Positions 1 through 64,000 of a stretch of DNA of 64,000 bases are shown one piece after another. A program made the translations under genes and the position numbers. The notes under the pieces are model-generated. The model did not search any database. It saw nothing but the letters and a program-made list of their open reading frames with translations, and was not told the DNA's origin. How positions within the stretch are numbered: position 1 is the stretch's first letter; every line of letters starts with the position of its first letter. The stretch comes from Candidatus Gastranaerophilales bacterium (GTDB lineage: Bacteria > Cyanobacteriota > Vampirovibrionia > Gastranaerophilales > Gastranaerophilaceae), in contig CALVEN010000007.1 in assembly GCA_944326585.1 (NCBI GenBank), positions 282-64,281 on the forward strand, written 5' to 3'.

Positions 1-546
1 GCAGTTTGTACAGGATATAATGAATACGGTAATTGTACAGGGTGGAAATGTGACAATGGTGAAAGTCTGCCAAGCGATTATAATGGTCCTATGACGGAAT
101 GTTCATTTTTTACCGAAGAAGTATTTTTGAATACACTTAGAACAACAAAAATATGCAAAAATAACGCTTATGAACAAGGGTGTTTGCCAAAGGATTTCAG
201 GGGCGCTGATATGGCAAAAAAAGAAGAAAATCCCGATCAGGATTATGATCCGAATAGTACATTTTCGGATTCTCCAGTAAAAAATAGATATCCGGTATTT
301 GTTCTTGCAGATGGTACTTATGTAATAGGTTATGTTAGATATCCTATTACAATGCCGATTTTTGTCGCGGATATAAATGGGACTAAAGGTCCCAACAAAT
401 GGGGATATGATTTATTTGGATTCCAAATTCGAGGTGATTCAAAAAACGGCATAACCAAATTAGTAGATTATAATATCGCTATTGAAAAAGGCGGGAAAAC
501 TTTTCAGCAGATGTATAATGAAGCTTTCAATATTAATGCACAATAA
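1..546 (+). CDS. Prepilin-type (pilin-like) protein paralog, C-terminal part; the 5' end lies outside the window
   Basis: Frame 1 is open from nt 1. The tail (TKICKNNAYEQGCLPKDFRG...ADINGTKGPNKWGYDLFGF...KGGKTFQQM) aligns almost residue for residue with the C-terminal two thirds of the 51211..52137 product. Confidence 0.8.
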   Translation, partial: AVCTGYNEYGNCTGWKCDNGESLPSDYNGPMTECSFFTEEVFLNTLRTTKICKNNAYEQGCLPKDFRGADMAKKEENPDQDYDPNSTFSDSPVKNRYPVFVLADGTYVIGYVRYPITMPIFVADINGTKGPNKWGYDLFGFQIRGDSKNGITKLVDYNIAIEKGGKTFQQMYNEAFNINAQ

Positions 547-15723: not shown

Positions 15724-15792
15724 TATAATAAATTCAAAAGGAGAATGATAGATATGACTAGTTTGAATAACGGGGGGGGGCGACTCTCCTAA
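15721..15792 (+). promoter_or_regulatory. Pilin-family expression cassette 1: extended -10, SD, ATG, poly-G, premature stop
   Basis: TGATATAAT 15721-15729; AAGGAGA 15738-15744; ATG 15745 and 15754 (in frame); G9 15772-15780; TAA 15790-15792. Short frame encodes M(ID)MTSLNNGGGRLS*. Confidence 0.7.
15772..15780 (+). repeat. G9 homopolymer (candidate slipped-strand tract)
   Basis: Nine consecutive G in an AT-rich context, at the same relative position as the tracts at 38022, 43499, 51035 and 60113. Confidence 0.95.
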
Positions 15793-15926
15793 GTAGACAG
15801 GACAAGGGTTTCGGCGGTATTGGTTTAGTAAAGTTACTAAGATACTATGGCACTAAGGCACTAAGAAGTAACATTCGTCATGGTAAGGCGGATCAATATA
15901 GTTGTATTCGCAGGGAACCTGTCATC

Positions 15927-17087
15927 TTGAACTGCCTGAGGCACGACAACATACTGGGCATTGGTCAACCTATAAACGTCATCCCGCATTTATTGCGGGA
16001 TCTCAATAAAAATATCAAGAGATTCTTCGCTGGCGCTCAGAATGACAAAACCGTGAGAAATGTAGGTCGCCTTTACTATGCCGACAGAAAAATTAACAGT
16101 CGGGTTAGTAAACCCGACCTACAAGTGACTATGGCTCAGAATGACATAAATACCTTCCCTCGCCCTACGGGAGAGGAATTAAGGGAGAGGGGGCTATCAG
16201 CTTATGATGAGATTTTGAAACGAGTTCAGGATGACAGAGTAGTGAGCGGAGCTCACAGTAAAGAACTTAACGTCCTAACGTCTTATCGTCTTAACGGCTT
16301 TAAAAAGAAAGCCGGTGCTACGCACGTAGACATGTCAGGCAACATTCGTTGTGCTGCGTTTACCCTCGCCGAGGTGCTTATCACCCTTGCCATAATCGGT
16401 ATTGTAGCAGCTTTGACTATTCCGACTCTTATAACGAATTATCAGAAAAAACAGACTGCATCAAAATTAAAACAAACATATTCAATAATCTCTCAGGCGC
16501 TTACAATGGCTCAAGCAGAGCATGGCGACACCACAACGTGGGAAGTTGCAGGAATTTACGATACTCCTACGAATGATACTAATTTTAATCATGAAGATGC
16601 AATAACGAAATTTACTACAAAATATTTTATGCCATATGTAAAGGTGGCAAAAGATTACGGGTACACGCAATATTCAAAGATAGGTTATGATGGTGACTAT
16701 CTTCCCGCCACAGGTCTTATTTCAAACAGTCGCAGTGCTTATGGGTATATACTGCTTTTATCCGGTAATGTTTTAATTAGAATTGGAATCGGAACCGGGT
16801 GTCTGAATAACGAGATAAATCCGGACGGTACTTGTGTTACTCGAACATACAAGAATATAGTATTCAAAGTGGATATAAACGGTTTTGACAAACCTAATGT
16901 GATTGGCAAAGATGTTTTTAATATGACGTTTGATTTACGCAAAAAAGTTTTCGGATTTCATAATTACGGTATAAGTACAAGACAGCGGTATTTGGATAAC
17001 TGTAAAAGTGATGAAGATGCACAAGTCTGCGGGTATCTGATATTTTTAGACGGATGGGAAATCAAAGATGATTATCCGTGGTTTTAG
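15927..17087 (+). CDS. Prepilin-type N-terminal cleavage/methylation-domain protein (pilin/pseudopilin-like), paralog 15
   Basis: AAFTLAEVLITLAIIGIVAALTIPT class III signal/hydrophobic helix at residues ~145-170 of the track ORF. C-terminal VDINGFDKPNVIGKDVF motif shared with paralogs. The frame stays open upstream to the G9 tract. Internal ATG 16332 gives a conventional MSGNIRCAA|FTLAE leader. Confidence 0.85.
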   Translation: MNCLRHDNILGIGQPINVIPHLLRDLNKNIKRFFAGAQNDKTVRNVGRLYYADRKINSRVSKPDLQVTMAQNDINTFPRPTGEELRERGLSAYDEILKRVQDDRVVSGAHSKELNVLTSYRLNGFKKKAGATHVDMSGNIRCAAFTLAEVLITLAIIGIVAALTIPTLITNYQKKQTASKLKQTYSIISQALTMAQAEHGDTTTWEVAGIYDTPTNDTNFNHEDAITKFTTKYFMPYVKVAKDYGYTQYSKIGYDGDYLPATGLISNSRSAYGYILLLSGNVLIRIGIGTGCLNNEINPDGTCVTRTYKNIVFKVDINGFDKPNVIGKDVFNMTFDLRKKVFGFHNYGISTRQRYLDNCKSDEDAQVCGYLIFLDGWEIKDDYPWF

Positions 17088-20307: not shown

Positions 20308-20414
20308 TCCATTACCAGTATAACTCGTTTTTGAAAGTATTTCAAGAATGATATCAAGAAATATGATTAGAATTTGGGATATATAGAAATTGTACTGCGC
20401 GCCGTAGACGGCGT

Positions 20415-21342
20415 ATCTACAATAGTAGAAATTTAGTATAGGTATTAAACCGGCAATTATACAATGCACTGCGGTGGCGATCTACAATAGTAGAAATTTA
20501 ATATAGGTATTAAACTCGTGGAGTAAATCAACGTGCTTGCCCATCTACAATAGTAGAAATTTAATATAGGTATTAAACAAATAGAATCATCAAAAGGCAC
20601 CTTTTAATCTACAATAGTAGAAATTTAATATAGGTATTAAACATGGTTCGTCTGCCTTATATTCGCTTCGGATCTACAATAGTAGAAATTTAATATAGGT
20701 ATTAAACTTCAAGACCGCCAAACATGCCCAAAATATCTACAATAGTAGAAATTTAATATAGGTATTAAACATTGCGTCAAACCTTGGCAACGGCAAATCT
20801 ACAATAGTAGAAATTTAATATAGGTATTAAACAGGAAGATTATGAACAACAAGAAGAATAATCTACAATAGTAGAAATTTAATATAGGTATTAAACAAAA
20901 AATCATGACAATAATACACGCTTTATCTACAATAGTAGAAATTTAATATAGGTATTAAACATCAATTTTGCAACAGCAAGTATCAGTGATCTACAATAGT
21001 AGAAATTTAATATAGGTATTAAACATGACAAGATATGAAGATAGTTTCGTCTATCTACAATAGTAGAAATTTAATATAGGTATTAAACAGCCGAAGCGAG
21101 CCTTCACACACTGGAGGATCTACAATAGTAGAAATTTAATATAGGTATTAAACGAGGCTATGGTAGTTTCTGGCGATGTATCTACAATAGTAGAAATTTA
21201 ATATAGGTATTAAACAAATGAATGCATATCTTGATACGGCGGAATCTACAATAGTAGAAATTTAATATAGGTATTAAACAACTCTCGGGCATCAATGCTA
21301 CTTCATATCTACAATAGTAGAAATTTAATATAGGTATTAAAC
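20415..21342 (-). CRISPR. Type V-A CRISPR array, 15 repeats and 14 spacers
   Basis: 36-nt repeat, minus-strand reading GTTTAATACCTATATTAAATTTCTACTATTGTAGAT. This carries the Cas12a crRNA handle AAUUUCUACU-AUU-GUAGAU. Repeat starts on the + strand: 20415, 20480, 20543, 20607, 20672, 20735, 20797, 20861, 20925, 20989, 21053, 21118, 21180, 21244, 21307. Spacers are 26-29 nt. The leader-distal repeat (20415-20450) has one substitution. Confidence 0.97.
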
Positions 21343-22710: not shown

Positions 22711-23264
22711 AATAAACTCCTGTCACAGCTTGGTTCATATATACAATTTTTACATTTGTCTATATTTTGTGCTTTAAATGTATGAATATCAAAATCGTGA
22801 ATATCCTTGATTAACTTTCGGAATTTGTTATCAGTTTCTTGGTCTTCTTTAGGGAGTTTGATGTCATAATTTTTATTATCTTTAATACTGTGAAATCTTA
22901 TTTTTTTAACTTCATAACCCATCTCAATTAATGCATAATATTGTGCATATAATTGAAATACATAACCGTCGTATATTTTTATTATTTTATTCTTTCGTTC
23001 GGTTAAAATACCTGTTTCTATATCAAATGTATCAATCTTTCCGGCAATATTAAATTCTGAACAAAATATGTTTATTCCCTGTAAAATAGTTTTTTTATCC
23101 GAATATAATTGTTTGTCAATTGTCTTATGAGCATTAGTTCCTGAAGTTTGTTTTGTTGATTGATACACAGATTTTTCTAATGTCCCGTATAACTTATGAA
23201 AATAAATTGATACGGGACAAAAGATAAAATCATTTAGATATGAGATTAATATTGTTTCTTCCAT
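22704..23264 (-). CDS. cas4: CRISPR-associated exonuclease Cas4
   Basis: N-terminal Cys (FCPVSIYF), RecB-like D...ERK core, C-terminal CKNCIYEPSC cluster. 1-nt overlap with cas12a (TAATG). Confidence 0.9.
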   Translation of the reverse strand: MEETILISYLNDFIFCPVSIYFHKLYGTLEKSVYQSTKQTSGTNAHKTIDKQLYSDKKTILQGINIFCSEFNIAGKIDTFDIETGILTERKNKIIKIYDGYVFQLYAQYYALIEMGYEVKKIRFHSIKDNKNYDIKLPKEDQETDNKFRKLIKDIHDFDIHTFKAQNIDKCKNCIYEPSCDRSLLC

Positions 23265-26200
23265 TATTCACTATCAAGTTCTTGTATATAAGTTAACCAG
23301 TCAGAATTTTTTATTGCATAAGCTATTTTTTCACCTCCATTTGTATGCTTTATACGATTAAGGATAATTAGTCCTTTTCTGGCTATATTATAAGCTCCGT
23401 TCGCGTCAGCATTTTGAGGCAAAGAATTATCACAACATCTTGAATCAAAGAAAAATCCTTTTTTATTTTTTATCGGTGATAATATATAATCTTTTTCGTT
23501 ACCTGTAATACTATTTCTTAATTGTACTAAAAGCTTAAATAAAATTCCAAAACCATTAAATCCGTCTTTTTCGGCAACTGCATTAAAGAATTTTGTATCC
23601 GCCTTGTCAAGTATTTCATTTTTTATGTTTTGATAATCTATATTATATTTATCAAATAAAATTTGAAATTCCTTGGTTAAATTTACGGTAATATTATCCC
23701 ATTCATTATTCTTCTTAGGATTTCGGAATGTTCGTATTCTGTCACCGTATGTACAAAGAGTCCATTCAGTTCTGTTTCCGGAAGATTTATCACTGAAATT
23801 TTTATAATCAAAATTAAATTCAAAATAATTTTCTTGATTATTAAATTTTATAAAATTAAATTTTTTAATAAATTCTTTATCAACTTTTTTTAAATCAAAT
23901 AAATTTACAAAACCCGTAGTCGGATCAATTTTACTCGTCCACACTGCAGGAATATAAAATATTATTCCATTTTGTTTTGTACTATTTATTTCTTTTGTTG
24001 CAAGCTGGTATGCATTCATCAATCCGCCCTGTTCAAATTTGTTTTGAATTGATTTATCAACAAGATAACTTAGTTTATCAATTAATTTTGTTTCAAATTT
24101 ATCATATACGGATTTTTCGACTTTTTTTCTTGAATTTTTAAAGCCGCTATTTAAATCTTCCAGTACTATAATGGCATTGTATTTGAACATTAAACGGGTA
24201 AGTTCATGCACAACCTGACTCATATATCCTTCTTTTAATTCTTTTATGTTTTGAATAGTACCCCACGATTTTCTATTGGCATCTCTTTCGGCCTCTTTTC
24301 TTTCGAGTAAATCATGGTAATTTGTATTTTCGATTATATTTAAAGAACGTTGTTCAATAATTTCACCGTTCATGTTGATAACGCTTATGTATAGAAGATG
24401 TCTTTCGCCTCTATCAATACCTATAATGTGAATATCATCAGAGTTTTTAATTTCATTGTTTGTAAAATCATTTAATTTGTTTATGTTTTGTGCTTTAAAA
24501 TTCAATGTAATCGGAACATGGAACTGAAATTTATCCAATGTAAATCTTTTATCTTTGATTAAATCATATTCAAAAGTACTGTATTTTTTAGGATTATCAG
24601 GGTTTTTATTTTCAATGGGTTCATTTTTAGGATGAGTTACTTTTGTTTCAATACTCTTTTTTCTGTAGAAAATTTCCGCTCCGCCGTTTAATTGATATAT
24701 GACATCTTTTAAGTTGTCTGCATCAAATAAGGCTCTCCAATACATTGTATGCAGATTCGGACGACCTTTTGAATATTTTGAAAAATCTTTGTTATAAATT
24801 TGGAAAAGATAAAGTTTACCTTCTTCTACAAGTTGATTTATGTAACTTTCAGAAATATTTGTAAAAGAAATTTTATATCCTTGCAGCTCAACTTCCCGAT
24901 AAAATTGACTTATATCTTGATATGTATTAGTATCCGAAAATTTAAAGTTGAATTTTGACCAGTCTTCATGCTTATTTATAGATTGTTTATAAAAATCTAT
25001 TAGTTCATGACAAAATCCTAAATCAAAATTTGCTCCTTTTTTATATAATCCTTTTTCATATTTGGCTATCAATTCATCGGAAGGATTAAATTCTTCTTTT
25101 CTGGAGTCTGAAAATAATACTTTTGGAAGCATTTTATTGGGACCGGGAAGCAATTTATATTCTATTTTTTCATAATATGATAAAGCTGACTCTTTATCAT
25201 TATTAATAAAAATTTTTCTGTTATTTTTATTGATAATTCCAATGTAATAATTTCCGTCTTTAATTAACAATGTCCCTAAATTTGCTTCTTCTTTATTCAA
25301 GTCCCAGCCGCTTAAAAAAGTAGGGCAATCAAAATTAAGTTTAAATTTTTCGACAGAATAAGGTTTTTTGGTTAAATAATTTCTTGTTTTGTTATAAACC
25401 GGAATTATTTCAGATAACAGTTCATAATTAAGCGAATTATAAAATTCTAAATCTGTTTCAATTGATTTGTTTTTCGGAATAAGGTGTTTTATAAGCATCT
25501 GTACATTTTTTAGTGAATCAAGGAAATCTTTTATTTTTTCAACTGCTTTTTTGTCTTGTATCAATTGTGTAGATGTTTCATCATATTCTTTTTCAAGTAT
25601 AGGTTTTACTTCAGAATAAGTTTTATCTATGAGTTTAAAATGTTCATTTATTTTATCTTTAAAATAGTTATAAAGTTTACCTTCATTGTTGCTATCTTTG
25701 TCATATTTTGATATAAGTTCTTCAATTCTATAAAGTGAAATTTCTTTAATTTTTTTTAATTCGTTATCTTTTTTGTCTGTATATTTTTCTGTTCCGTAAG
25801 CCAGTTTACCTTTATAATTATTGTCATATTCCATACTCAAAAGATAATTAATATAGCCCCAATCTTTGTAGATATTTTGGCTTATTCCTGTATTATCATC
25901 CAGAATTAAATAAATTTCTTCTGTATTATAGTTAGATATATTTTCAATAACATTTTCAAATGATTTATTTTCTATGAAAGCATCAGAAAATATTTTAAAA
26001 TAGTTATTAATGAGCTCAGTTACCTGTTTATCAGATTCAATCGTATTAAATTTAAAAGAAACAGAATTTGCATCACTTAAAATTTGCTTATAAAGCTGTT
26101 TTAATTTTGGGATTTTAATTTTTGTATCTTGAATATATTTATTTACTATTTCATTTATACCCTGTATTTTTTTATCATTTGTTGCTTTTCCGGAAATAAT

Positions 26201-26923
26201 AAGATTATATTCTTCAATTTGCCTTTGATTTAAAACATGTGTATAATTTTCAACGGTAGAAAAATATTCATCACAATCAAGTCCTAAATTTTGTTTTATT
26301 GTGTTTTTTATTTCAGGAATATTTTCTGAAATTTTATTAAATGCTTTAATATTCTTTAAATAAATAGGCAGATTTTCATTAATTAACCTGTAAGCTATAG
26401 ACGTATGTTTTTCTTCATTTGAATACATATTTTTTCGGTTTGTATCAAAACCTGAAAAATACGTTGTGAATTTTTCAAACACTTTTATTTCTTCAAGGAT
26501 TTCATTGTTGTTTTTATAATATTCTTGTAAATTTTTATTAATCATGTCTTTTCCAAAAAGAGTATTATATTTGGAATTCTTAGTAAATCTATCGGAAATT
26601 TTTTGACGTAATAATTTTTCTATACTTGAAAATTCTTTTTCTTCTTTTTCAGATAAATTTTGGCGGTTAAAAAATTCTGTATATTGTATTAATAAACATT
26701 TAAAATTTTCATCATTAAAATTATCCAAACATTCATTAATGAAATATTTATGATATTCATCACAATATTTTTTAATTTTTTGATATAATATCGCCTTTTT
26801 TTCATCTTCTTTTAAAATATATTCCGCAAAATACTCCTTTGTTTTTCCAATCGGAATAAGCTCAAATCTTAAAGTTTTTGAAACTTTAAATAAATTGTGA
26901 AAACAGTCATAAAAATTTTTCAT
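23264..26923 (-). CDS. cas12a: Cas12a (Cpf1), type V-A effector, 1219 aa
   Basis: N-terminus FKVSKTLRFELIPIGKT. RuvC-I IGIDRGERHLLY, RuvC-II IVLEDLNSGFK, RuvC-III DADANGAYNIARKG. AGGAG lies 6 nt before the ATG. The repeat type matches. Confidence 0.95.
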   Translation of the reverse strand: MKNFYDCFHNLFKVSKTLRFELIPIGKTKEYFAEYILKEDEKKAILYQKIKKYCDEYHKYFINECLDNFNDENFKCLLIQYTEFFNRQNLSEKEEKEFSSIEKLLRQKISDRFTKNSKYNTLFGKDMINKNLQEYYKNNNEILEEIKVFEKFTTYFSGFDTNRKNMYSNEEKHTSIAYRLINENLPIYLKNIKAFNKISENIPEIKNTIKQNLGLDCDEYFSTVENYTHVLNQRQIEEYNLIISGKATNDKKIQGINEIVNKYIQDTKIKIPKLKQLYKQILSDANSVSFKFNTIESDKQVTELINNYFKIFSDAFIENKSFENVIENISNYNTEEIYLILDDNTGISQNIYKDWGYINYLLSMEYDNNYKGKLAYGTEKYTDKKDNELKKIKEISLYRIEELISKYDKDSNNEGKLYNYFKDKINEHFKLIDKTYSEVKPILEKEYDETSTQLIQDKKAVEKIKDFLDSLKNVQMLIKHLIPKNKSIETDLEFYNSLNYELLSEIIPVYNKTRNYLTKKPYSVEKFKLNFDCPTFLSGWDLNKEEANLGTLLIKDGNYYIGIINKNNRKIFINNDKESALSYYEKIEYKLLPGPNKMLPKVLFSDSRKEEFNPSDELIAKYEKGLYKKGANFDLGFCHELIDFYKQSINKHEDWSKFNFKFSDTNTYQDISQFYREVELQGYKISFTNISESYINQLVEEGKLYLFQIYNKDFSKYSKGRPNLHTMYWRALFDADNLKDVIYQLNGGAEIFYRKKSIETKVTHPKNEPIENKNPDNPKKYSTFEYDLIKDKRFTLDKFQFHVPITLNFKAQNINKLNDFTNNEIKNSDDIHIIGIDRGERHLLYISVINMNGEIIEQRSLNIIENTNYHDLLERKEAERDANRKSWGTIQNIKELKEGYMSQVVHELTRLMFKYNAIIVLEDLNSGFKNSRKKVEKSVYDKFETKLIDKLSYLVDKSIQNKFEQGGLMNAYQLATKEINSTKQNGIIFYIPAVWTSKIDPTTGFVNLFDLKKVDKEFIKKFNFIKFNNQENYFEFNFDYKNFSDKSSGNRTEWTLCTYGDRIRTFRNPKKNNEWDNITVNLTKEFQILFDKYNIDYQNIKNEILDKADTKFFNAVAEKDGFNGFGILFKLLVQLRNSITGNEKDYILSPIKNKKGFFFDSRCCDNSLPQNADANGAYNIARKGLIILNRIKHTNGGEKIAYAIKNSDWLTYIQELDSE

Positions 26924-28439: not shown

Positions 28440-28835
28440 TGGTGGAGACGGTGGGACTCGAACCCACGTCCAAAATGGACCAACATAAACCTCTACGTGT
28501 GTAGATACTCATTTTCTCGGCTGATTCAGGAAAGTATCACTACCCTTAAATCAGCCAAAGTATTTTTTTCGGAAATACTTAACCTTTAATGGTTATCTTG
28601 ATACGCCTACCATCATCAACGTACTGCGTCTTGCATAAGTGGACCCCAACAGCCGGCAAGCTGGGCTATTGAAGTGGCTGACTGCGTCTTACGCAGCAAG
28701 AGCGTATGCTCTTGAAAAATCAGCTTTAATTACGTTGTCTTTAGCATTTAATTTGCTATGCTCGTTGATAACCGAGAACAGCGCTCGGACACGCAGCTTA
28801 TATCAATCATCATCCTGTCAAATCCGGACGTCCCC
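28440..28835 (-). ncRNA. ssrA: tmRNA (SsrA), one-piece
   Basis: 5' GGGGACGTCCGGATTTGACAGG. 3' GACGTGGGTTCGAGTCCCACCGTCTCCACCA. Acceptor stem GGGGACG/CGUCUCC with G3:U. Tag reading frame AKDNVIKADFSRAYALAA* (GCT AAA GAC ... GCT GCG TAA). Confidence 0.93.
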
Positions 28836-37968: not shown

Positions 37969-38063
37969 TGATATAATAAACCCAAAACAAGGAGAGTGTT
38001 GATATGACTAGTTTGAACAACGGGGGGGGGCGACTCCTCCAGGTACAGATAGCAAGGTTTTAG
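37969..38063 (+). promoter_or_regulatory. Pilin-family expression cassette 2
   Basis: TGATATAAT 37969-37977; GGAGAG 37991-37996; ATG 38004; G9 38022-38030; stop TAG 38061-38063. Short frame encodes MTSLNNGGGRLLQVQIARF*. Confidence 0.7.
38022..38030 (+). repeat. G9 homopolymer
   Basis: Nine G. Position equivalent to the other four tracts. Confidence 0.95.
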
Positions 38064-38239
38064 GCGGTATTGGTTGTGTAAAGTTACTAAGATACTATGG
38101 CACTAAGGCACTAAGAAGTAACAGAAAAGTAGGTCGGCATTACCATGCCGACAGAAAAGTTTACTGTCGGGTTAGTAACCCTGACCAACGCGTTACAGAA
38201 AGAATTGACACAACCCCTGAAACAAATTATAATTCTAAT

Positions 38240-39079
38240 ATGATAAACTATAAATCAGAAAACAAAAACGTGAGAGAAGTTCAGTGTAACCACACCCCTC
38301 ACTCTACTCACTCGACTCAAGCAAAACGTGTCGCGTTTACTCTGGCGGAGGGTGCTACGCACGTAGACATGTCAGACAACATTCGTCGTGTGGCATTCAC
38401 TCTGGCGGAAGTTTTGATAACCCTTGCCATAATAGGTATTGTGGCAGCTGTGACAATTCCGACGTTAATAACAAAGTATCAAGAGAAGCAGACAGTAACA
38501 AGGTTTAAGTGGATATATTCAACATTAGCGAATGCTTTCACTATGGCTGTTGCGGAAAACGGGGCGCCTGAAACTTGGGATTTGAATAGTGCTGAAGATA
38601 TGGCAAATATTTTGTCAAAATATATGAGAATTAGTGAAAAATGTTATAATACCGCTGGTTGTTTGCCTCCGGATTTAAATATTGTTGCATTGACTGGCGA
38701 AATGCGTTATACATTACCCGGCAATGCAAATTATGTAAAATCACGTTTTAATAACGGCATAAGCCTTATGTGGTTTGAGCCTCATAAAGGGTGCAGTTAT
38801 TCTTATATTGATACTGATGGCAACCAAATAGATGTAGAAAACAGTTGCGGCTCTTTGTACGCTTTTATCTCAACGAATCGTACAAACAGATATGGTCTTG
38901 ACCATTTTGTTTTTACAGTTACACCGAAGGGAATATTGCCGGGCGGTTATGATTATAATGACAGCAATATAAAGCGGAATTGCACAAAAAATTGGACATC
39001 CGATGGTAATACAAATGGTGCTACCTGCGGGGAATGGATAAGACGCTGGGGTAATGCGGATTATTGGTATGATAATTAA
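38240..39079 (+). CDS. Prepilin-type N-terminal cleavage/methylation-domain protein, paralog 38
   Basis: RRVAFTLAEVLITLAIIGIVAAVTIPTLITKYQEKQT. The frame is open upstream to the G9 tract. Internal ATG 38369 gives MSDNIRRVA|FTLAE. Confidence 0.85.
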   Translation: MINYKSENKNVREVQCNHTPHSTHSTQAKRVAFTLAEGATHVDMSDNIRRVAFTLAEVLITLAIIGIVAAVTIPTLITKYQEKQTVTRFKWIYSTLANAFTMAVAENGAPETWDLNSAEDMANILSKYMRISEKCYNTAGCLPPDLNIVALTGEMRYTLPGNANYVKSRFNNGISLMWFEPHKGCSYSYIDTDGNQIDVENSCGSLYAFISTNRTNRYGLDHFVFTVTPKGILPGGYDYNDSNIKRNCTKNWTSDGNTNGATCGEWIRRWGNADYWYDN

Positions 39080-41262: not shown

Positions 41263-42630
41263 ATGTACGGAATAATTTTAGCAGGCGGTTCAGGAAGCAG
41301 ATTGTGGCCTTTATCCAGAGAGTTGTATCCAAAACAGCTTTTGAACCTTAATTCGGATAAAAGTCTTTTGCAGACAACGTTTGAAAGGCTTAATTTGTTT
41401 TTGCCTGCTGATAAAATTTTGAGTATTACAAATACTAAACATGCGGCTAATGTTAAAATGCAGGTCGATAAAAAAAGTCTTGTATTATCAGAGCCCGTTT
41501 CAAAAAATACTGCTCCCGCAATTGCGCTTTCCGTAAAATATCTTACGGAAAAAACAAATTCCGATCCGATTGTGCTTGTTATGCCTTCAGATTTGGAAAT
41601 AAAAGATGTTGAAAAATTTCAAGAAGCTGTTAATAAGGCAGTAAGGCTTGCACAGGAAGATTTTATTGTAACTTTCGGCGTAAAGCCTTTATATCCGGAA
41701 ACAGGTTTCGGGTATATTAAGGCTGACAGTACAGGCAGAGTCGAAAAATTTGTGGAAAAACCTTCTCAAATCACAGCTCAAGATTATCTAAAAGACGGCA
41801 GTTATTTTTGGAACAGCGGTATTTTTATGTTTAAAGCCTCGGTTATTTTAAATGAAATATCCGATTTCGCTCCGGAAATTGCCTCTGTTCTCGGGAAGTT
41901 TGACTTTACTGAAAATGATAATGTTCCCTATACCGAATTTGAAAAAATGCCGAATATTTCAATAGATTATGCTGTTATGGAAAAATCCAAAAATATCTCT
42001 ATGGTGGAGCTTGAATGTGACTGGAAAGATTTGGGTTCGTGGCAGTCTATTTATGATGTGAGTAAAAAAGATTCAAACGGAAATGTTTTTGTCGGGCATG
42101 TGCTGGATAAAGATTCAAAAGGTTCTCTTGTTTACGCATCATCAAAACTCGTTGCAACTATCGGGCTTGAAGATACCGTAATTGTTGAAACGGAAGATGC
42201 GATTCTTGCGTGTAAAAAAGACAGAACGCAGGAAGTAAAAGAAATCTACGAAACTTTAAAACAGCAGCACGATGATACACAAATGGTTCATAAAACAGTT
42301 TACAGACCATGGGGATTTTATACCGTTATTGCAGCGGGAAAAGGTTTTCAGACCAAAATTATTCACGTAAATCCGGGGCAGAAATTATCCGTGCAGTCGC
42401 ATAATTTCAGAAGTGAACACTGGGTTGTTTTGAGCGGTACGGCAAAAGTTGTTCTGGAAAGCAGAGATTATATTTTGTCTCCGGGACACAGTATTGATAT
42501 TCCCGTTAAAGCAATTCATTCTCTGCAGAATCCCTTTAATGAAGATGTCGAGGTTATTGAAGTTCAAAAAGGCGATGTGCTCTCAGAAGACGATATTATC
42601 AGATATGAAGATATGTACGGCAGAGTGTAG
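41263..42630 (+). CDS. manC: Mannose-1-phosphate guanylyltransferase / mannose-6-phosphate isomerase
   Basis: LAGGSGSRLWPLSR N-terminus. C-terminal cupin (YRPWG...SVQSH..RSEHWVV..G). Confidence 0.88.
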   Translation: MYGIILAGGSGSRLWPLSRELYPKQLLNLNSDKSLLQTTFERLNLFLPADKILSITNTKHAANVKMQVDKKSLVLSEPVSKNTAPAIALSVKYLTEKTNSDPIVLVMPSDLEIKDVEKFQEAVNKAVRLAQEDFIVTFGVKPLYPETGFGYIKADSTGRVEKFVEKPSQITAQDYLKDGSYFWNSGIFMFKASVILNEISDFAPEIASVLGKFDFTENDNVPYTEFEKMPNISIDYAVMEKSKNISMVELECDWKDLGSWQSIYDVSKKDSNGNVFVGHVLDKDSKGSLVYASSKLVATIGLEDTVIVETEDAILACKKDRTQEVKEIYETLKQQHDDTQMVHKTVYRPWGFYTVIAAGKGFQTKIIHVNPGQKLSVQSHNFRSEHWVVLSGTAKVVLESRDYILSPGHSIDIPVKAIHSLQNPFNEDVEVIEVQKGDVLSEDDIIRYEDMYGRV

Positions 42631-43402
42631 CCAAATCTTTGTAATAACCTTCGTCTAAAAGTTCATTGAATATTTGGGCTGATGTCGGGGCAAGCTTTTT
42701 TGCATATTCTTTATCAAGATATAATCCTTCAACAAAACGTGCAAAAAGTTCGGTCGGTCTTGCATAATATTTTTTACTTTTGTTGATTTTGGCGGAAATC
42801 CGTGCCTGTTTTTTCTGATAAGATTTTAGTCTTATATATGCTGCAAAAGCTTCCGGCATATCGGGGAAATCATTTTCTATTGTGTCTATTGTATAAATTC
42901 TTGAATCTTTCCTCCAGAATCCGCGGATTAATTTGATCCTGTCGTATTTTAAAAGGTATTTTGCATCGGATTTTTTAATATATTTTTCAAATTCTTTGAA
43001 GCGTTTTGACCGCATAAATTTCGGGTAATCCCTTTTGATAATATTTTCCTGCTCTTTTATTTTTTCTTTTACAAGATTTTTATGATATTCAAGTTTTCTG
43101 CATAATGAATTTTCATCGACAAAGTTGGTAACCTTTAATAATTCGGTTTTAATCAACGGATCGGATGTTTTAAAAAGAACCTCAAGACTGCCGCCTGTTT
43201 TTGGCATATCGGGTTCAATTTTTGAATGAACGTAGTGTGCAAATTCGTGTATCAGAGTCGGAATTTTTTTATATTCGGGCAGATTTTTCGAAATATCAAT
43301 ACGGTTTTTTAAGAAAAATCCGTGATGCCCCCGTGCTTTGGTTGTTGTGTGAATTTCTATCCCCAGACTTTTGAAATATTTAATAAGTTCCTTTGCTTCC
43401 AT
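42599..43402 (-). CDS. Hypothetical protein with an HExxH motif (possible zinc metallopeptidase)
   Basis: 267-aa ORF with LIHEFAHYVH. No other recognisable feature. Confidence 0.45.
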   Translation of the reverse strand: MEAKELIKYFKSLGIEIHTTTKARGHHGFFLKNRIDISKNLPEYKKIPTLIHEFAHYVHSKIEPDMPKTGGSLEVLFKTSDPLIKTELLKVTNFVDENSLCRKLEYHKNLVKEKIKEQENIIKRDYPKFMRSKRFKEFEKYIKKSDAKYLLKYDRIKLIRGFWRKDSRIYTIDTIENDFPDMPEAFAAYIRLKSYQKKQARISAKINKSKKYYARPTELFARFVEGLYLDKEYAKKLAPTSAQIFNELLDEGYYKDLATLCRTYLHI

Positions 43403-43440
43403 AAATTTATTATACTATAATTGCCTAAATTGATAAAGTG

Positions 43441-43510
43441 TGGTATATTATAGAAAACAAGGAGAGTGCAAATGGAAGATATGACTAATTTGAATAACGG
43501 GGGGGGAGCG
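43441..43510 (+). promoter_or_regulatory. Pilin-family expression cassette 3 (in frame)
   Basis: TGGTATATT 43441-43449; GGAGAG 43461-43466; ATG 43472 and 43481; GGGGGGGGAG 43499-43508. There is no stop afterwards. Confidence 0.7.
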
Positions 43511-44608
43511 ACTCTTCTAAGTAGGCAGGACAAGGGTTTTGACGGTATATTTTGGGAAAAGTTACTAAGATACTATGATACTAAGGCAGTAAGAAGTAAC
43601 AGAAAAGTAGGTCGGCATTACTATGCCGACAGAAAAGTTTACCGTCGGGTTAGTAAACCCGACCTACAAGAGAATATGGCTCAGAATGACAAGAATATCA
43701 TCCCTCGCCCCTTGGGGAGAGGGTGTCACGAAGTGACAGGAGAGGGGCTAAGTGACAAAAATGTGAGCAAAGCTCACAGAAAACGCTTAGTGCCTTACTG
43801 CCTTAGTAACTTAGTATCTTCACAAAAAGCCGCGTTTACCTTAGCAGAGGTTTTGATAACCCTCGGCATAATCGGTATTGTGGCAGCGATGACAATTCCG
43901 ACACTTATTACGAATTATCAGGAAAAACAAACAATTTCCAAATTACAAAAAGTCTACGCGTCTTTAAAGAATGCATTTGAACTTGCAAAAGTTGAGCATG
44001 GTGATTATGAAACCTGGTCGTGGAATCAGATTCCTGTAACCAATGGCGCGCGAACACAATATTTTTGGGAAACATATATTTTCCCGCATTTAAAGATTGC
44101 TAAAAAATGTTTCCCGATAACAACGGAATGTGTCGCAGAGGGTATTACAAAATTGAATGGTACGGCTGAATCTGTTGTTACATCTACACATGGTGCTTTT
44201 GTTTTATATGACGGTACATATGTTTATACGTGGGCTGGAGGTTCCGGTTTTCATCCGCATATTTGGGTGTATGCTGATATCAACGGTGAGGCAAAGCCAA
44301 ACGTGGTAGGCAAAGATATATTTACTATGTTTTTCTCGCCAAAAAATCCAGGGAATAAAATCGGCTCGTTTGATGACGATAATAATTTTGTTGACTCAGG
44401 AAAATTATCAACCCCTGCTTACGGATTAAGTTTGTATGGAGATGTAAACGGGGTTACCGTTGAAGATCTTATGGATCCGAATTTTGTTCTGGAAACTGAC
44501 ACAGGTGCCAAGCAAAAACATTGTTGTACCACAGAAGGCACAGGGTATATGTGCGGTGCGGCAATAAAATTAAACGGCTGGAAATTTCCCGACGGTTATC
44601 CCAGATAA
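43472..44608 (+). CDS. Prepilin-type protein, paralog 43; the whole long leader is in frame with the cassette ATG
   Basis: Single ORF MEDMTNLNNGGGATLLSRQDKGF...QKAAFTLAEVLITLGIIGIVAAMTIPTLITNYQEKQT...ADINGEAKPNVVGKDIF. Confidence 0.85.
   Translation: MEDMTNLNNGGGATLLSRQDKGFDGIFWEKLLRYYDTKAVRSNRKVGRHYYADRKVYRRVSKPDLQENMAQNDKNIIPRPLGRGCHEVTGEGLSDKNVSKAHRKRLVPYCLSNLVSSQKAAFTLAEVLITLGIIGIVAAMTIPTLITNYQEKQTISKLQKVYASLKNAFELAKVEHGDYETWSWNQIPVTNGARTQYFWETYIFPHLKIAKKCFPITTECVAEGITKLNGTAESVVTSTHGAFVLYDGTYVYTWAGGSGFHPHIWVYADINGEAKPNVVGKDIFTMFFSPKNPGNKIGSFDDDNNFVDSGKLSTPAYGLSLYGDVNGVTVEDLMDPNFVLETDTGAKQKHCCTTEGTGYMCGAAIKLNGWKFPDGYPR
43499..43506 (+). repeat. G8 homopolymer followed by A-G (an interrupted 10-nt tract)
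   Basis: GGGGGGGGAG occupies the position where the OFF copies have G9. Confidence 0.95.
43517..43872 (+). repeat. 356-bp leader cassette, apparently identical to 51052..51407
   Basis: A by-eye base-by-base comparison found no mismatch between the two intervals. The flanks diverge at once on both sides. Confidence 0.8.
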
Positions 44609-44610
44609 AG

Positions 44611-44634
44611 AAAGCTCCCTTCGGGGAGTTTTTT
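44611..44634 (+). terminator. Rho-independent terminator
   Basis: AAAGCTCCCTTCGGGGAGTTTTTT. Confidence 0.85.
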
Positions 44635-44721
44635 GTTTACATATTTTAAAATATTTACATCATACGGTTGTAGTTGTATTATTATTTTAGTAGACAATTA
44701 CAGACTTTGAGGAATTAAAAA

Positions 44722-50973: not shown

Positions 50974-51055
50974 TGATATAATAAACCTAAAAAGAAGGAG
51001 AGCTAAAATGGAAGATATGACTAGTTTTAATAACGGGGGGGGGCGACTCTCCTAA
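50974..51055 (+). promoter_or_regulatory. Pilin-family expression cassette 4
   Basis: TGATATAAT 50974-50982; AAGGAGAG 50996-51001+; ATG 51008 and 51017; G9 51035-51043; TAA 51053-51055. Short frame encodes MEDMTSFNNGGGRLS*. Confidence 0.7.
51035..51043 (+). repeat. G9 homopolymer
   Basis: Nine G. Position equivalent to the other tracts. Confidence 0.95.
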
Positions 51056-51407
51056 GTAGGCAGGACAAGGGTTTTGACGGTATATTTTGGGAAAAGTTAC
51101 TAAGATACTATGATACTAAGGCAGTAAGAAGTAACAGAAAAGTAGGTCGGCATTACTATGCCGACAGAAAAGTTTACCGTCGGGTTAGTAAACCCGACCT
51201 ACAAGAGAATATGGCTCAGAATGACAAGAATATCATCCCTCGCCCCTTGGGGAGAGGGTGTCACGAAGTGACAGGAGAGGGGCTAAGTGACAAAAATGTG
51301 AGCAAAGCTCACAGAAAACGCTTAGTGCCTTACTGCCTTAGTAACTTAGTATCTTCACAAAAAGCCGCGTTTACCTTAGCAGAGGTTTTGATAACCCTCG
51401 GCATAAT
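51052..51407 (+). repeat. 356-bp leader cassette, apparently identical to 43517..43872
   Basis: See 43517..43872. Confidence 0.8.
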
Positions 51408-52137
51408 TGGGATAGTAGCAGCAATGACAATCCCGACGATATCGCGTAATATTCAGCATGCCGTACTAAAAAATCAATTCAAGAAATTCTACAGCACTTT
51501 CTGGCAGGCGGTAATCGGTATACAGACAAAAGGAGGCAGACCTGTACAGTGTTATTACTGGGATGGCGCAAATCCATATACGGGCAAATGCACCCCGACA
51601 TGTGATGAAGATGAAAAAAATCAATACGGTAACTGTACTGTATATAGGTGTGCGGAAACAGGAGAACCCATTCCGACGGATATAAACGGAAAGTCTTCGG
51701 AGTGCAGTGATTTTTATGAGGAATTGTTTTTAAAAACATTAAAGACAACAAAAATATGTAAAGATAAGGCATATGAACAGGGGTGCCTGCCGGAAGACTT
51801 CAGAGGTGTGGATGTTGTAAAATCAGAACAAAATCCGGATAAAGAATATGACCCTGCAGGAATTTTTGCTGATTCCCCTGTGAAAAATAATTATCCTGTC
51901 TTTGTGTTAGCTGACGGAACATATATTGTAGGTTATGCTCGTTATTTAGCGGGTTTGCCTATTTTTGTCGTGGACATAAACGGGACTAAAGGTCCAAACA
52001 AATGGGGTTATGATATATTTTCTTTTAGCTTGAGGGGTAATGCGCAAACCGGAATAAATAAATTGAATAGTGCAACTTATGCAACGGAAAAAGGCGGGAA
52101 AACTTTTCAGCAGATGCTGGACGAATGTTTTAAATAG
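51211..52137 (+). CDS. Prepilin-type protein, paralog 51
   Basis: QKAAFTLAEVLITLGIIGIVAAMTIPT, then a mature domain unrelated to paralog 43 but homologous to the partial gene at 1..546. The frame is open upstream to the G9 tract. Confidence 0.85.
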   Translation: MAQNDKNIIPRPLGRGCHEVTGEGLSDKNVSKAHRKRLVPYCLSNLVSSQKAAFTLAEVLITLGIIGIVAAMTIPTISRNIQHAVLKNQFKKFYSTFWQAVIGIQTKGGRPVQCYYWDGANPYTGKCTPTCDEDEKNQYGNCTVYRCAETGEPIPTDINGKSSECSDFYEELFLKTLKTTKICKDKAYEQGCLPEDFRGVDVVKSEQNPDKEYDPAGIFADSPVKNNYPVFVLADGTYIVGYARYLAGLPIFVVDINGTKGPNKWGYDIFSFSLRGNAQTGINKLNSATYATEKGGKTFQQMLDECFK

Positions 52138-58922: not shown

Positions 58923-59948
58923 CTAACTGCAAGAATGTTTGCCGTCCCAGGATAAATCATCACAATCCCAGTAATCCATATTGCCGTTATAAATTACCCA
59001 TGCAGTACATGTTACATTATTTCCCGTATAAGTTTTGTTCAGACAGGCATTCTCAAAAGATGAACCGATATATGTTCTGTTCGGCATTCCTTGCGGTAAA
59101 ATCCCATCGCGATATATATCAAATTTAAATACGTCTTTTCCGATTTGATTTGGTGATGCGCTTCCGTTTAAATCTACGGTAATGGTTCCGCAATTTCTAA
59201 AATACAATTCACGTTCTTCAGTGGAATTTTTATATGCTTGACACCATACTTCTGCAGCGTTGTCGCCGTTCGCCCCTAAAAATTTTATTGAAGTGCCGTT
59301 ATTGAGTATAAAGGTTTTTTTCATTCTTCCCGGATTGTCCAGATGAGATTTATTCAGCTTGTAGTAATCTTTACCCCAGCAGGCTGTATATATTTTTTCA
59401 TAATTGCTTGCTTCACATGTTTTTAAAATTTTAAGAAATTGCGGCATAATTTTATTGTATATCGGTTCTATATCATATCTATTATTTGCTCCCCAAAAAT
59501 TAATTGGTCCATATTCCTTAATTGCCATATCAAATGCACTGTTCAGGATACTGTAGGTGTGTTTTAATTTTGTTACGAATACTTTTTCTTGATAATTCGC
59601 AACTAGTATCGGAATAGTCATAGCAGCCACAACACCGATAATTGCCAGAGTAATTAGAACCTCCGCCAAAGTAAAGGCGGGTTTTTTAGAAGATACTAAG
59701 TTACTAAGGCAGTAAGGCACTAAGAATTTACTGTGAGCTTCGCTCACTAATTCTTCCCTCCCGCCCTTGAGGGGGAGGGTTAGGGTGGGGGGAATTTTTT
59801 GAGATCCTTCGGCTATCGCCTCAGGATGACCTGTAAAATTACACAGAGACCCCGAATGTTGTCGTGCCTCAGGCACCTCAGGATGACATGATACTTCCGT
59901 CATCCCGGACTTGTTCCGGGATCTTATTTTATCTATTAGATCCCGCAA
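58923..59948 (-). CDS. Prepilin-type protein, paralog 59
   Basis: KKPAFTLAEVLITLAIIGVVAAMTIPILVANYQEK...VDLNGSASPNQIGKDVFKF. The frame is open upstream to the C11/G11 tract. Confidence 0.85.
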   Translation of the reverse strand: MRDLIDKIRSRNKSGMTEVSCHPEVPEARQHSGSLCNFTGHPEAIAEGSQKIPPTLTLPLKGGREELVSEAHSKFLVPYCLSNLVSSKKPAFTLAEVLITLAIIGVVAAMTIPILVANYQEKVFVTKLKHTYSILNSAFDMAIKEYGPINFWGANNRYDIEPIYNKIMPQFLKILKTCEASNYEKIYTACWGKDYYKLNKSHLDNPGRMKKTFILNNGTSIKFLGANGDNAAEVWCQAYKNSTEERELYFRNCGTITVDLNGSASPNQIGKDVFKFDIYRDGILPQGMPNRTYIGSSFENACLNKTYTGNNVTCTAWVIYNGNMDYWDCDDLSWDGKHSCS

Positions 59949-60100
59949 TAAATGCGGGATGACGTATAAGGATTGTCCAAGCTCAAGTGTAATGTCCTGC
60001 CTTTGGCAGTGCGGGATGACGTTTATAGTTTGTAGATTTATTTTTTCACAAAGATTTTTATTTTTTTGAGATGCTGAAACCAGTTCAGCATGACCGGAGG

Positions 60101-60197
60101 TTAAGCTAACTGCCCCCCCCCCCTGAATGAAAAGTAGTTGTTATGCGTATTTGCGCCCATTTTTTAACCTCCAAGTATTCTGTTACTTATTATATCA
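60101..60197 (-). promoter_or_regulatory. Pilin-family expression cassette 5 (minus strand)
   Basis: Minus strand: TGATATAAT (60197-60189); GGAGG (60172-60168); ATG 60160; G11 (60123-60113); TAA 60103-60101. Short frame encodes MGANTHNNYFSFRGGGQLA*. Confidence 0.7.
60113..60123 (-). repeat. G11 (C11 on the + strand) homopolymer
   Basis: Eleven consecutive C on the + strand. Confidence 0.95.
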
Positions 60198-63658: not shown

Positions 63659-63668
63659 TGTCAGGCAA

Positions 63669-63860
63669 AACCCTCACCCGAATTTCTAAACTCGCTGGTG
63701 CTCGTCAAGAAATTCTACCCTCTCCCTCTGGGAGAGGGGTGGCTGAGCCACGACATCATGTTTGATAATTTTGGTATGCCTATTCATGTCTTTGTTAGGG
63801 GTGCCAAAGGCACGACAATACAATGTCATTCTGAGCGCCAGCGAAGAATTCCGGTTGCAG
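63669..63860. repeat. Cluster of GC-rich hairpin modules (intergenic)
   Basis: CCCTCACCCGAATTTCT...AGAAATTCTACCCTCTCCCTCTGGGAGAGGGG; GTGGCTGAGCCAC; GTGCCAAAGGCAC; GTCATTCTGAGCGCCAGCGAAGAAT. The same module types occur in the pilin leaders, mfd and 57535-57681. Confidence 0.7.
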
Positions 63861-64000
63861 GTCGTTATGGTAATACCTGTAAAGTATCTTGTTGAAAGCA
63901 CGATATACAAGCTAATCAGCAATACAAAGAGCATATATAGAGTCAGCCTCGCGTGAACTTGATTTGCCAGCGCAAGTCCTAATAACTTCGAATTGGCGAA

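Follow-up and report, generated by a model that had tools for sequence, protein, structure and literature searches.

A silent adenine within the poly-G tract of a pilin-like gene in a gut Gastranaerophilales genome and the probable phase variation of its gene family

A 64,000-nt stretch of a Candidatus Gastranaerophilales (Melainabacteria) genome with a GC content of 35.7%, referred to below as the window, harbors five related gene cassettes, each of which combines a guanine tract near the start codon with a long N-terminal leader and a type IV pilin-like protein. The third of them, designated here as locus 3, is the main subject of this work, since its tract is interrupted by an adenine and its reading frame is uninterrupted, i.e., the cassette appears to be in the ON state. 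The features recognized at locus 3, all on the plus strand unless stated otherwise, are as follows:

43421..43449: promoter-like site recognized in a consensus scan, TTGCCT-17 nt-TATATT, the -10 hexamer being preceded by TG
43459..43474: Shine-Dalgarno sequence AAGGAG (43459-43464), 7-nt spacer and cassette ATG (43472-43474), read from the sequence
43472..43834: leader-peptide coding region of 121 codons, the last being Ala-121 at position -1, built of hairpin-forming modules
43499..43508: interrupted tract GGGGGGGG-A-G in the 10-nt in-frame slot, comprising codons 10-12 (GGG GGG GGA) and the first base of GCG
43559..43600: left arm of a long-range inverted repeat (AAGTTACTAAG...ACTAAGGCAGTAAG), translated as KLLRYYDTKAVRSN, repeat family D8
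43789..43830: right arm of the inverted repeat (CTTAGTGCCTTACTGCCTTAGTAACTTAGTA), translated as LVPYCLSNLVS, from the predicted fold
43823..43894: class III (prepilin) signal and N-methylation motif KAA↓FTLAEVLITLGIIGIVAAMTIP, with predicted cleavage at A121/F122 (between 43834 and 43835)
43835..44608: mature pilin-like protein of 257 amino acids, DUF6613-related, stop codon included, from homologues and a structural model
44615..44636: intrinsic-terminator-like hairpin CTCCC-TTCG-GGGAG followed by TTTTTTGT, as read from the sequence (a scan gave the same hairpin on the opposite strand)

Positions 43493-43514 read aataac GGGGGGGG A G cgactc, so eight guanines (G8, 43499-43506) are followed by A 43507 and G 43508. 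An earlier interpretation made from the letters of this DNA (the sequence-only reading) stated that the G8-A-G string fills exactly the 10-nt slot that brings the cassette in frame, and that one continuous frame of 378 codons leads from ATG 43472 to the pilin stop; both statements are borne out by the sequence and by the listed open reading frame (ORF) 43466..44608, the stop codon occupying 44606-44608. A 43507 is the third base of codon 12, where GGG is changed to GGA, hence glycine is kept and the change is silent relative to a pure G10 tract. The promoter-like sequence, which would serve the cassette as a promoter, is identical in four orthologous contigs (L165, L166, L169 and L081), and the arrangement of the ribosome-binding site (RBS) and ATG is common to all five cassettes of the window and about 50 related loci.

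The G tracts of the window are confined to these cassettes: 11 overlapping G8 matches, compared with 0.35 expected, fall in five places only, and every run of at least seven G or C is one of the five cassette tracts. The four paralogous cassettes are the following:

15745..17087, plus strand: cassette 1, ATG at 15745 or 15754, G9 at 15772-15780, OFF, needs +1; 192-codon leader, pilin
38004..39079, plus strand: cassette 2, ATG at 38004, G9 at 38022-38030, OFF, needs +1; 121-codon leader, pilin
51008..52137, plus strand: cassette 4, ATG at 51008, G9 at 51035-51043, OFF, needs +1; leader 99% identical to the locus 3 leader, pilin domain unrelated
58923..60160, minus strand: cassette 5, ATG at 60160-60158, G11 at 60123-60113, OFF, needs G12 or G9; 145-codon leader, pilin

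The order of elements is the same in all of them: a sigma-70-like promoter, RBS, ATG, about 6-12 codons, the G tract (starting 18-37 nt past the RBS-linked ATG), the long leader, the pilin motif A↓FTLAEVLITLxIIGxVAA and a variable domain roughly 250 residues in size. In 5 of 5 loci, the pilin frame has no stop between a point shortly upstream of the tract and the end of the pilin gene, whereas both alternative frames hit a stop about 3-13 codons past the tract; loci 1, 2 and 4 would need G10 to join the ATG to the pilin frame. Thus, locus 3 is indeed the only in-frame copy within the window, the other four being out of frame, as the sequence-only reading had it; its description of the other copies as G9 loci applies to loci 1, 2 and 4 but not to the fifth, which carries G11. 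Each copy possesses its own promoter-like site, RBS and ATG, and the cassettes are dispersed singly among housekeeping genes (CCA/polyA polymerase, GH3, GrpE, ManC, MurA, Mfd, SurA-like, RsmD, HydF, spermidine synthase). At the very start of the window, ORF 91-546 (plus strand) matches the C-terminal half of the pilin of locus 4 at 71-89% nucleotide identity in three blocks and probably represents a sixth paralogue with its 5' part beyond the window start.

Judging from its coding pattern, the leader is translated. Over leaders of 108-192 codons, the five loci of the window display 0 stops in the pilin frame compared with 9-18 in each other frame (for locus 3, 0 against 9 and 11), and the probability of an open pilin frame after shuffling is 5.5e-4 for locus 3 and does not exceed 1e-3 for any of the five. 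A non-circular test, in which the open frame was not presupposed, was carried out on 61 pilin motifs with a G run of at least 8 within 800 nt upstream: the pilin frame was open over the whole interval in 57 of the 61 and, for intervals of at least 150 nt, in 24 of 28, compared with 0 of 28 in either other frame. Full-length precursors starting from the cassette ATG are present in protein databases for other assemblies (MENKRFENNGGGATLLSRQDKGF..., MEDMTSLNHGGGATLP...) and begin with M...NNGGGATLL; at the same time, inspection of the window cassettes revealed no conserved start codon with an RBS near A↓FTLAEV. The proposal that the long leader frame can be read from the cassette ATG is hence upheld, and peptides derived from the leader would include ATLLSR and QDKGFDGIFWEK. 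Public gene calls for OFF alleles begin at spurious internal or upstream codons (e.g., MTGEGLSDK..., MAQNDKNII..., MWYIIENKES... in clusters P0002, P0003 and P0004), so the N-termini in database entries of this pilin family are unreliable.

Past the leader, locus 3 carries the class III motif [G/A]↓F-x-x-x-E together with about 20 hydrophobic residues. Its scores are 22.3 bits for PF07963 (cutoff 21.2) and 18.9 for TIGR02532 (cutoff 16.3); these profiles of prepilin N-terminal cleavage and methylation match all five cassettes, except that PF07963 is sub-threshold in locus 2. When PDB sequences were searched, F122 fell opposite residue 1 of the mature PpdD and GspG chains. The DUF6613 (PF20318) score of 19.8 bits lies below the Pfam cutoff of 24.3, but precomputed PF20318 annotation is found on most close homologues, and most of the more than 7,500 homologous proteins carry it. 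In the AlphaFold2 model, built from a 114-sequence alignment, the predicted local distance difference test (pLDDT) score mostly stays under 50 over residues 1-94 and reaches 53-54 over residues 101-120, followed by a helix (124-176) and a beta-rich domain with pLDDT above 90. The genes pilB, pilC, pilD and pilT have been reported for a Gastranaerophilus genome (PMC5877343).

The tract was compared with its counterparts from other samples in two syntenic groups. Group A comprises the orthologues of locus 3, recognized by the synteny of ManC, a 267-amino-acid gene, the pilin, MurA and Mfd as at locus 3; group B is a second syntenic locus (cluster P0004):

Group A, G8AG: the window and L165 (a separate assembly, 12.8-kb scaffold, ENA analysis ERZ28614541)
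Group A, G9: L166, L167, L168
Group A, G8: L169
Group A, G9 with a short leader: L081, L082
Group A, G9 with a different promoter and N-terminus: L083, L084 (contigs end inside a repeat, possible chimerism)
Group B, G10, ON: L170, L175, L176
Group B, A+G9, ON, first G of the slot replaced: L171, L172
Group B, G9, OFF: L173, L174

Group A thus holds two G8AG, seven G9 and one G8 tract. The identical G8AG in the separate assembly L165 indicates that A 43507 is not a one-off consensus artefact, a risk that the sequence-only reading had named, and the exact 378-residue product of locus 3 is recorded on three contigs. Within near-identical flanks the lengths differ in both groups (G8, G9 and G8AG in A; G9, G10 and A+G9 in B), which is the kind of polymorphism that a hypermutable tract would be predicted to leave in assemblies. 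By cluster membership, group B includes about 55 contigs with OFF-type gene calls (internal starts) against about 12 of the ON type, and OFF orthologues from different samples retain 97-99% protein identity. Additional ON alleles are represented by pure G10 in three samples (L179-181) and at L021 and by T+G9 (L177, L178). The expectation that an uninterrupted ON copy would speak against a switch is therefore not sustained: pure G10 ON tracts exist at L170, L175, L176, L179-181 and L021, as phase variation predicts. The conserved 267-residue ORF of the syntenic block (42599-43402, minus strand), divergent from locus 3 and present in all orthologous contigs, gave no Pfam match.

Taken together, locus 3 is, in our estimation, quite probably one of many type IV pilin-like genes that are switched on and off by slipped-strand mispairing in a poly-G tract, i.e., by translational phase variation. 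The cassette ATG, which in locus 3 precedes the tract by 27 nt, would serve as the start of translation; of every three tract lengths, one would join this ATG to the open frame running through the leader and A↓FTLAEV into the pilin domain, and with the other lengths the ribosome would stop 3-13 codons past the tract, so that no pilin would be produced. The leader would stay in the cytoplasm and be removed by prepilin peptidase. In natural populations, OFF would be the majority allele at most loci, with locus 3 of the present genome representing an ON allele. A +1 slip (G9 to G10) probably came first and filled the 10-nt slot of locus 3, and a silent G-to-A transition would have followed, cutting the pure run to G8; switching would then be several-fold slower, though not abolished, and the allele ON-biased. 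As far as assemblies allow testing, the tract appears to display every feature of phase variation. A G-quadruplex role was set aside, as a lone G run cannot form such a structure by itself.

The rates published for Campylobacter jejuni offer a scale for this scenario: ON-to-OFF switching per division amounts to 4.2e-4 for G8, 1.2e-3 for G9 and 4.1e-3 for G11, G8 being roughly 3-10 times slower than G10-G11, and the G10-to-G9 deletion (17.9e-4) exceeds the G9-to-G10 insertion (10.3e-4) (PMC3401435). By this analogy, the slower slippage that the sequence-only reading expected from the G-to-A change is likely, but calling the paralogue locked ON went too far, because a G8 run remains and G8 still switches in C. 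jejuni (PMC3401435). If the organism behaves like C. jejuni, the allele is best described as stabilized or ON-biased; with similar rates, mutation pressure alone would favor G9 over G10.

The wider family was surveyed by a protein-guided scan of one genome per species of the Genome Taxonomy Database (GTDB), which revealed at least 581 related loci; most of the 80 kept come from Candidatus Gastranaerophilales, Melainabacteria, Vampirovibrio or Cyanobacteria metagenome-assembled genomes from guts or bear no taxon label. A protein-guided metagenome scan yielded at least 558 related loci, and an exact-pattern scan of metagenome contigs with the sequence directly past the tract returned 0 matches. 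The survey proper included 160 loci fetched irrespective of the tract, 50 of which have a G tract of at least 7 linked to an RBS-ATG; the start codon was scored by RBS spacing, and two loci (L038, L042) have two overlapping ATGs behind one RBS. The tracts range from G8 to G12 with the mode at G10 (32 of 50). Five loci are ON (one of them, L152, doubtful), 31 need +1 and 14 need -1. Moreover, G10 was found in 3 of 16 loci where this length is in frame compared with 29 of 34 where it is out of frame (Fisher p = 9e-6). This pattern of assembled lengths points to populations that would be dominated by OFF variants; the asymmetry of 31 versus 14 could stem from mutation bias, selection or rescue at the RNA level, and the excess of OFF could also come from rescue by transcriptional or ribosomal slippage as an added layer.

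Such rescue is the essence of an alternative that we regard as improbable, namely recoding, in which RNA polymerase slippage on G9-G11 or a -1/+1 ribosomal frameshift on G GGG GGG steadily yields some in-frame product from the seemingly OFF alleles, the out-of-frame tract being the intended state; in that case, locus 3 would be expressed constitutively at a high level but would not be the sole expressed allele. Several points favor it: homopolymers of nine or more nucleotides are known to cause transcriptional slippage, OFF lengths are present in 45 of 50 loci and recur at a given locus from sample to sample, the ORFs downstream have remained intact in OFF copies, two thirds of the OFF loci would be corrected by +1 nt, which a -1 ribosomal shift would equally supply, and the leader RNA past the tract is strongly structured (for locus 3, a fold of -133 vs. 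-94 kcal/mol for shuffles, z = -7.4). However, one directional signal cannot serve both the loci in need of +1 and those in need of -1, no conserved stimulatory hairpin is found 5-9 nt past the tract, and the pure in-frame G10 alleles together with the differences in DNA length between orthologues indicate that switching occurs at the DNA level. Recoding could also work beside phase variation rather than replace it.

An error of sequencing or assembly, with the true tracts being in frame (G10 or G12), under-called by one G, and nothing switched at all, seems very unlikely. It would account for the four uninterrupted tracts of the window, all of which are one G short, and for the fact that the only in-frame copy is the easiest to sequence, but 14 survey loci are one G too long, and pure G10 and G11 were assembled without trouble at other loci. 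In addition, at one and the same locus both the G9 call and the G10 call recur in several independent short-read assemblies, whose contig names follow the style of metaSPAdes (NODE_) and MEGAHIT (k127_, k141_). Since the assembled length tracks the reading frame, an error blind to frame is rejected; the avoidance of the in-frame length in the 50 loci and the length differences between orthologues thus agree with the earlier preference for a real switch over random assembly error.

It is hardly credible that the OFF copies are decaying pseudogenes, with the tract a mere mutational hotspot and locus 3 the surviving functional paralogue. Although 4 of 5 window copies and 90% of the surveyed ones are out of frame, in every case the defect maps to the tract and amounts to plus or minus 1; neither the 108-192 leader codons nor the pilin domain of the OFF copies contains a stop, no other frameshift is present, the OFF orthologues are as well preserved across samples as noted above, and a given locus may be ON or OFF depending on the sample. 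A similarly slight chance is given to the idea that the short ATG-to-stop ORF (MTSLNNGGGRLS and stop) encodes a Gly-rich leader peptide upstream of a non-coding attenuator or 5' untranslated region (UTR), the pilin starting internally and ungated: three Gly codons in a short upstream ORF, followed by a very stable multi-hairpin RNA, and the internal starts often chosen by gene callers would suit it, but the in-frame alleles fuse the ATG to the pilin, and this reading, like that of pseudogenes, is rejected because the leader frame is open, full-length precursors exist, no internal start with an RBS is conserved and, in the case of the attenuator, no Rfam family matches.

The preferred interpretation, phase variation of the tract, has several points weighing against it as well. 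The evidence of switching was drawn entirely from consensus assemblies. Seven of the ten group A assemblies carry G9 and none carries a pure G10, hence the tract of locus 3 could be less mobile than assumed, or OFF could be strongly selected. The share of ON loci in the survey is 10%, as opposed to 33% for neutral switching (binomial p = 2e-4 against 1/3), a deficit that needs added selection against ON or RNA- or ribosome-level rescue of OFF alleles. The usual prepilin leader has 5-30 residues and Gly at -1. Locus 3 departs from this pattern with a leader of 121 residues (about 120-205 in the paralogues) and Ala at -1, the latter being shared by 16 of 16 sequences in one alignment and by no less than 90% of those in the 114-sequence one, and we know of no other prepilin leader as long as 121 residues; for these reasons, cleavage by prepilin peptidase is an assumption. 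Finally, the Foldseek comparison of the locus 3 model with the PDB gave no match at E <= 0.001 for the globular domain, probably because the modeled disordered leader and long helix hamper a query with the whole model. Given this result along with the PF07963 and TIGR02532 matches, the PpdD and GspG alignment and the model, the proteins are therefore considered type IV pilin-like at the N-terminus, the rest being a domain of unsolved fold that corresponds to DUF6613 in the homologues.

The leaders of all five cassettes are mosaics of hairpin-forming repeat modules, each of which recurs in other leaders in a fixed frame; 62 of the 64 copies in all fetched loci are situated inside leaders. In the predicted fold of the locus 3 leader, 43559-43600 pairs with 43789-43830, enclosing several hairpin modules. 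The block between the two arms is absent from the orthologues L081 and L082, where TTAGTA marks the junction, and the sets of modules differ among the other orthologues of locus 3. From the ATG across the leader to the pilin N-terminus, loci 3 and 4 share 99% identity (43472-43834 vs. 51008-51369), whereas identity between the two mature proteins drops to 30% and is almost entirely confined to the first 23 residues; this disparity suggests a recent gene conversion or swap of the whole 5' cassette. The leader would tolerate variable, disordered, module-built sequence provided that the frame stays open, since it would be cytoplasmic and then removed.

A genome-wide origin of the modules as miniature inverted-repeat transposable elements (MITEs) is unsupported, as only 2 of the 64 copies in all fetched loci and a single copy in the window, at about 63660-63860, are outside leaders. 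There, at the window edge (63660-63900, minus strand), leader-type modules (FAGAQNDI-like and a cccctctcccagagggagaggg hairpin, among others) occupy an intergenic region for which the window shows no pilin gene, and they may belong to a gene past the window end. In locus 2, a module is inserted within the prepilin motif, which is duplicated (AFTLAE-GATHVDMSDNIRRV-AFTLAEV, 38335-38410); this GATHVDMS module is also found in locus 1, P0015 and P0051, sometimes with nested inserts.

Other features of the window include a CRISPR (clustered regularly interspaced short palindromic repeats) array at 20402-21342, in which a 36-nt repeat occurs at least 15 times (the 3' end of the repeat on the minus strand, AATTTCTACTATTGTAGAT, is of type V-A style), and, adjoining it on the minus strand (23264-26923), an ORF of 1219 amino acids with Cas12a/Cpf1 domains (REC1, REC2, PI, RuvC, NUC). 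An Rfam scan of the whole window yielded a sole match at gathering score, the transfer-messenger RNA gene at 28440-28835 on the minus strand (135.6 bits), and none on the leaders.

A broader scenario may be outlined, although we hold it to be doubtful: the gut Gastranaerophilales could possess an undescribed system of combinatorial surface variation comprising dozens of independently promoted, poly-G-gated pilin-like genes. In this scenario, the hairpin-rich leaders of 100-200 residues would be translated, cleaved off and functional and not merely tolerated as junk: where a long structured stretch is left untranslated, polarity could keep the OFF state tight, and the leaders could also act as shared homology blocks by which gene conversion moves 5' cassettes and their tract state between paralogues. 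The order-wide avoidance of ON lengths would reflect counter-selection of piliated cells in the host, e.g., by immunoglobulin A (IgA) or pilus-specific phages. The gut Melainabacteria have not been cultured, and very little is known of their surface biology. If the interpretation of the tracts as phase-variable switches is right, stochastic pilus variation as in Campylobacter or Neisseria would bear on colonization, immune evasion and phage resistance; automated annotation would mis-call most genes of the pilin family; a translated leader of such length in front of a class III signal would broaden the range of what counts as a prepilin; and the silent G-to-A allele would provide a natural ON-biased variant for measuring switching rates.

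Within the library searched, no paper dealt with DUF6613 or with poly-G switching of pilins in Melainabacteria or Gastranaerophilales, and a search on long pilin leaders returned nothing relevant to the present system. Among the known systems, the pilC and opa genes of Neisseria have their repeat in the region coding for the signal peptide, with most paralogues OFF and a combinatorial surface variation as the result. The present loci resemble them in the position of the repeat near the start of a pilus or adhesin gene and in the prevalence of OFF paralogues; they differ in that the opa repeat is a pentamer and PilC is a tip adhesin, not a pilin. The variation of the Neisseria pilin itself proceeds by gene conversion from promoterless pilS copies. 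A pilE/pilS-type arrangement was considered and rejected for the window, where each copy has a promoter-like site of its own and the signs of conversion are limited to the 5' cassette of loci 3 and 4. The palindromic elements of Rickettsia, reportedly described by Ogata et al. in 2000, are said to be inserted in frame in protein genes; the modules found here are likewise short translated hairpins that keep the frame of the host gene and are present or absent in blocks between orthologues, but, unlike those elements, they are nearly confined to pilin leaders, with a fixed frame, in a segment predicted to be cleaved off.

Closer parallels are offered by the contingency loci of C. jejuni, where G8-G11 tracts lie in the 5' part of reading frames for surface structures, with many loci per genome, a modal length of 9-10 and the ON/OFF state set by gain or loss of a single G (Bayliss et al. 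2012, PMC3401435). The switching rate there depends on the tract length (PMC3401435). The loci described here differ in belonging to non-photosynthetic cyanobacterial relatives from the gut and to pilin-like DUF6613 paralogues, in the location of the tract within a leader predicted to be removed from the product, and in the strong OFF bias of the consensus. In another gut commensal, Bifidobacterium breve, an intragenic G tract similarly parts a short upstream ORF with the start codon from the body of the pilus subunit gene; the tract of the reference genome is in the OFF state, and pili are produced from a minority length that is in frame (Penno et al. 2022, PMC9187656). The B. breve switch is found at two loci and concerns pili of the sortase-dependent kind that have a Sec signal (PMC9187656), in contrast to the type IV-like proteins with a class III signal, the large multigene family and the 100-200-codon leader of the present case. 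Overall, the mechanism, simple-repeat phase variation, is a known one, here in a new lineage and a new gene family; its unusual part is the long, modular, translated leader, which, along with the order-wide OFF bias, merits follow-up.

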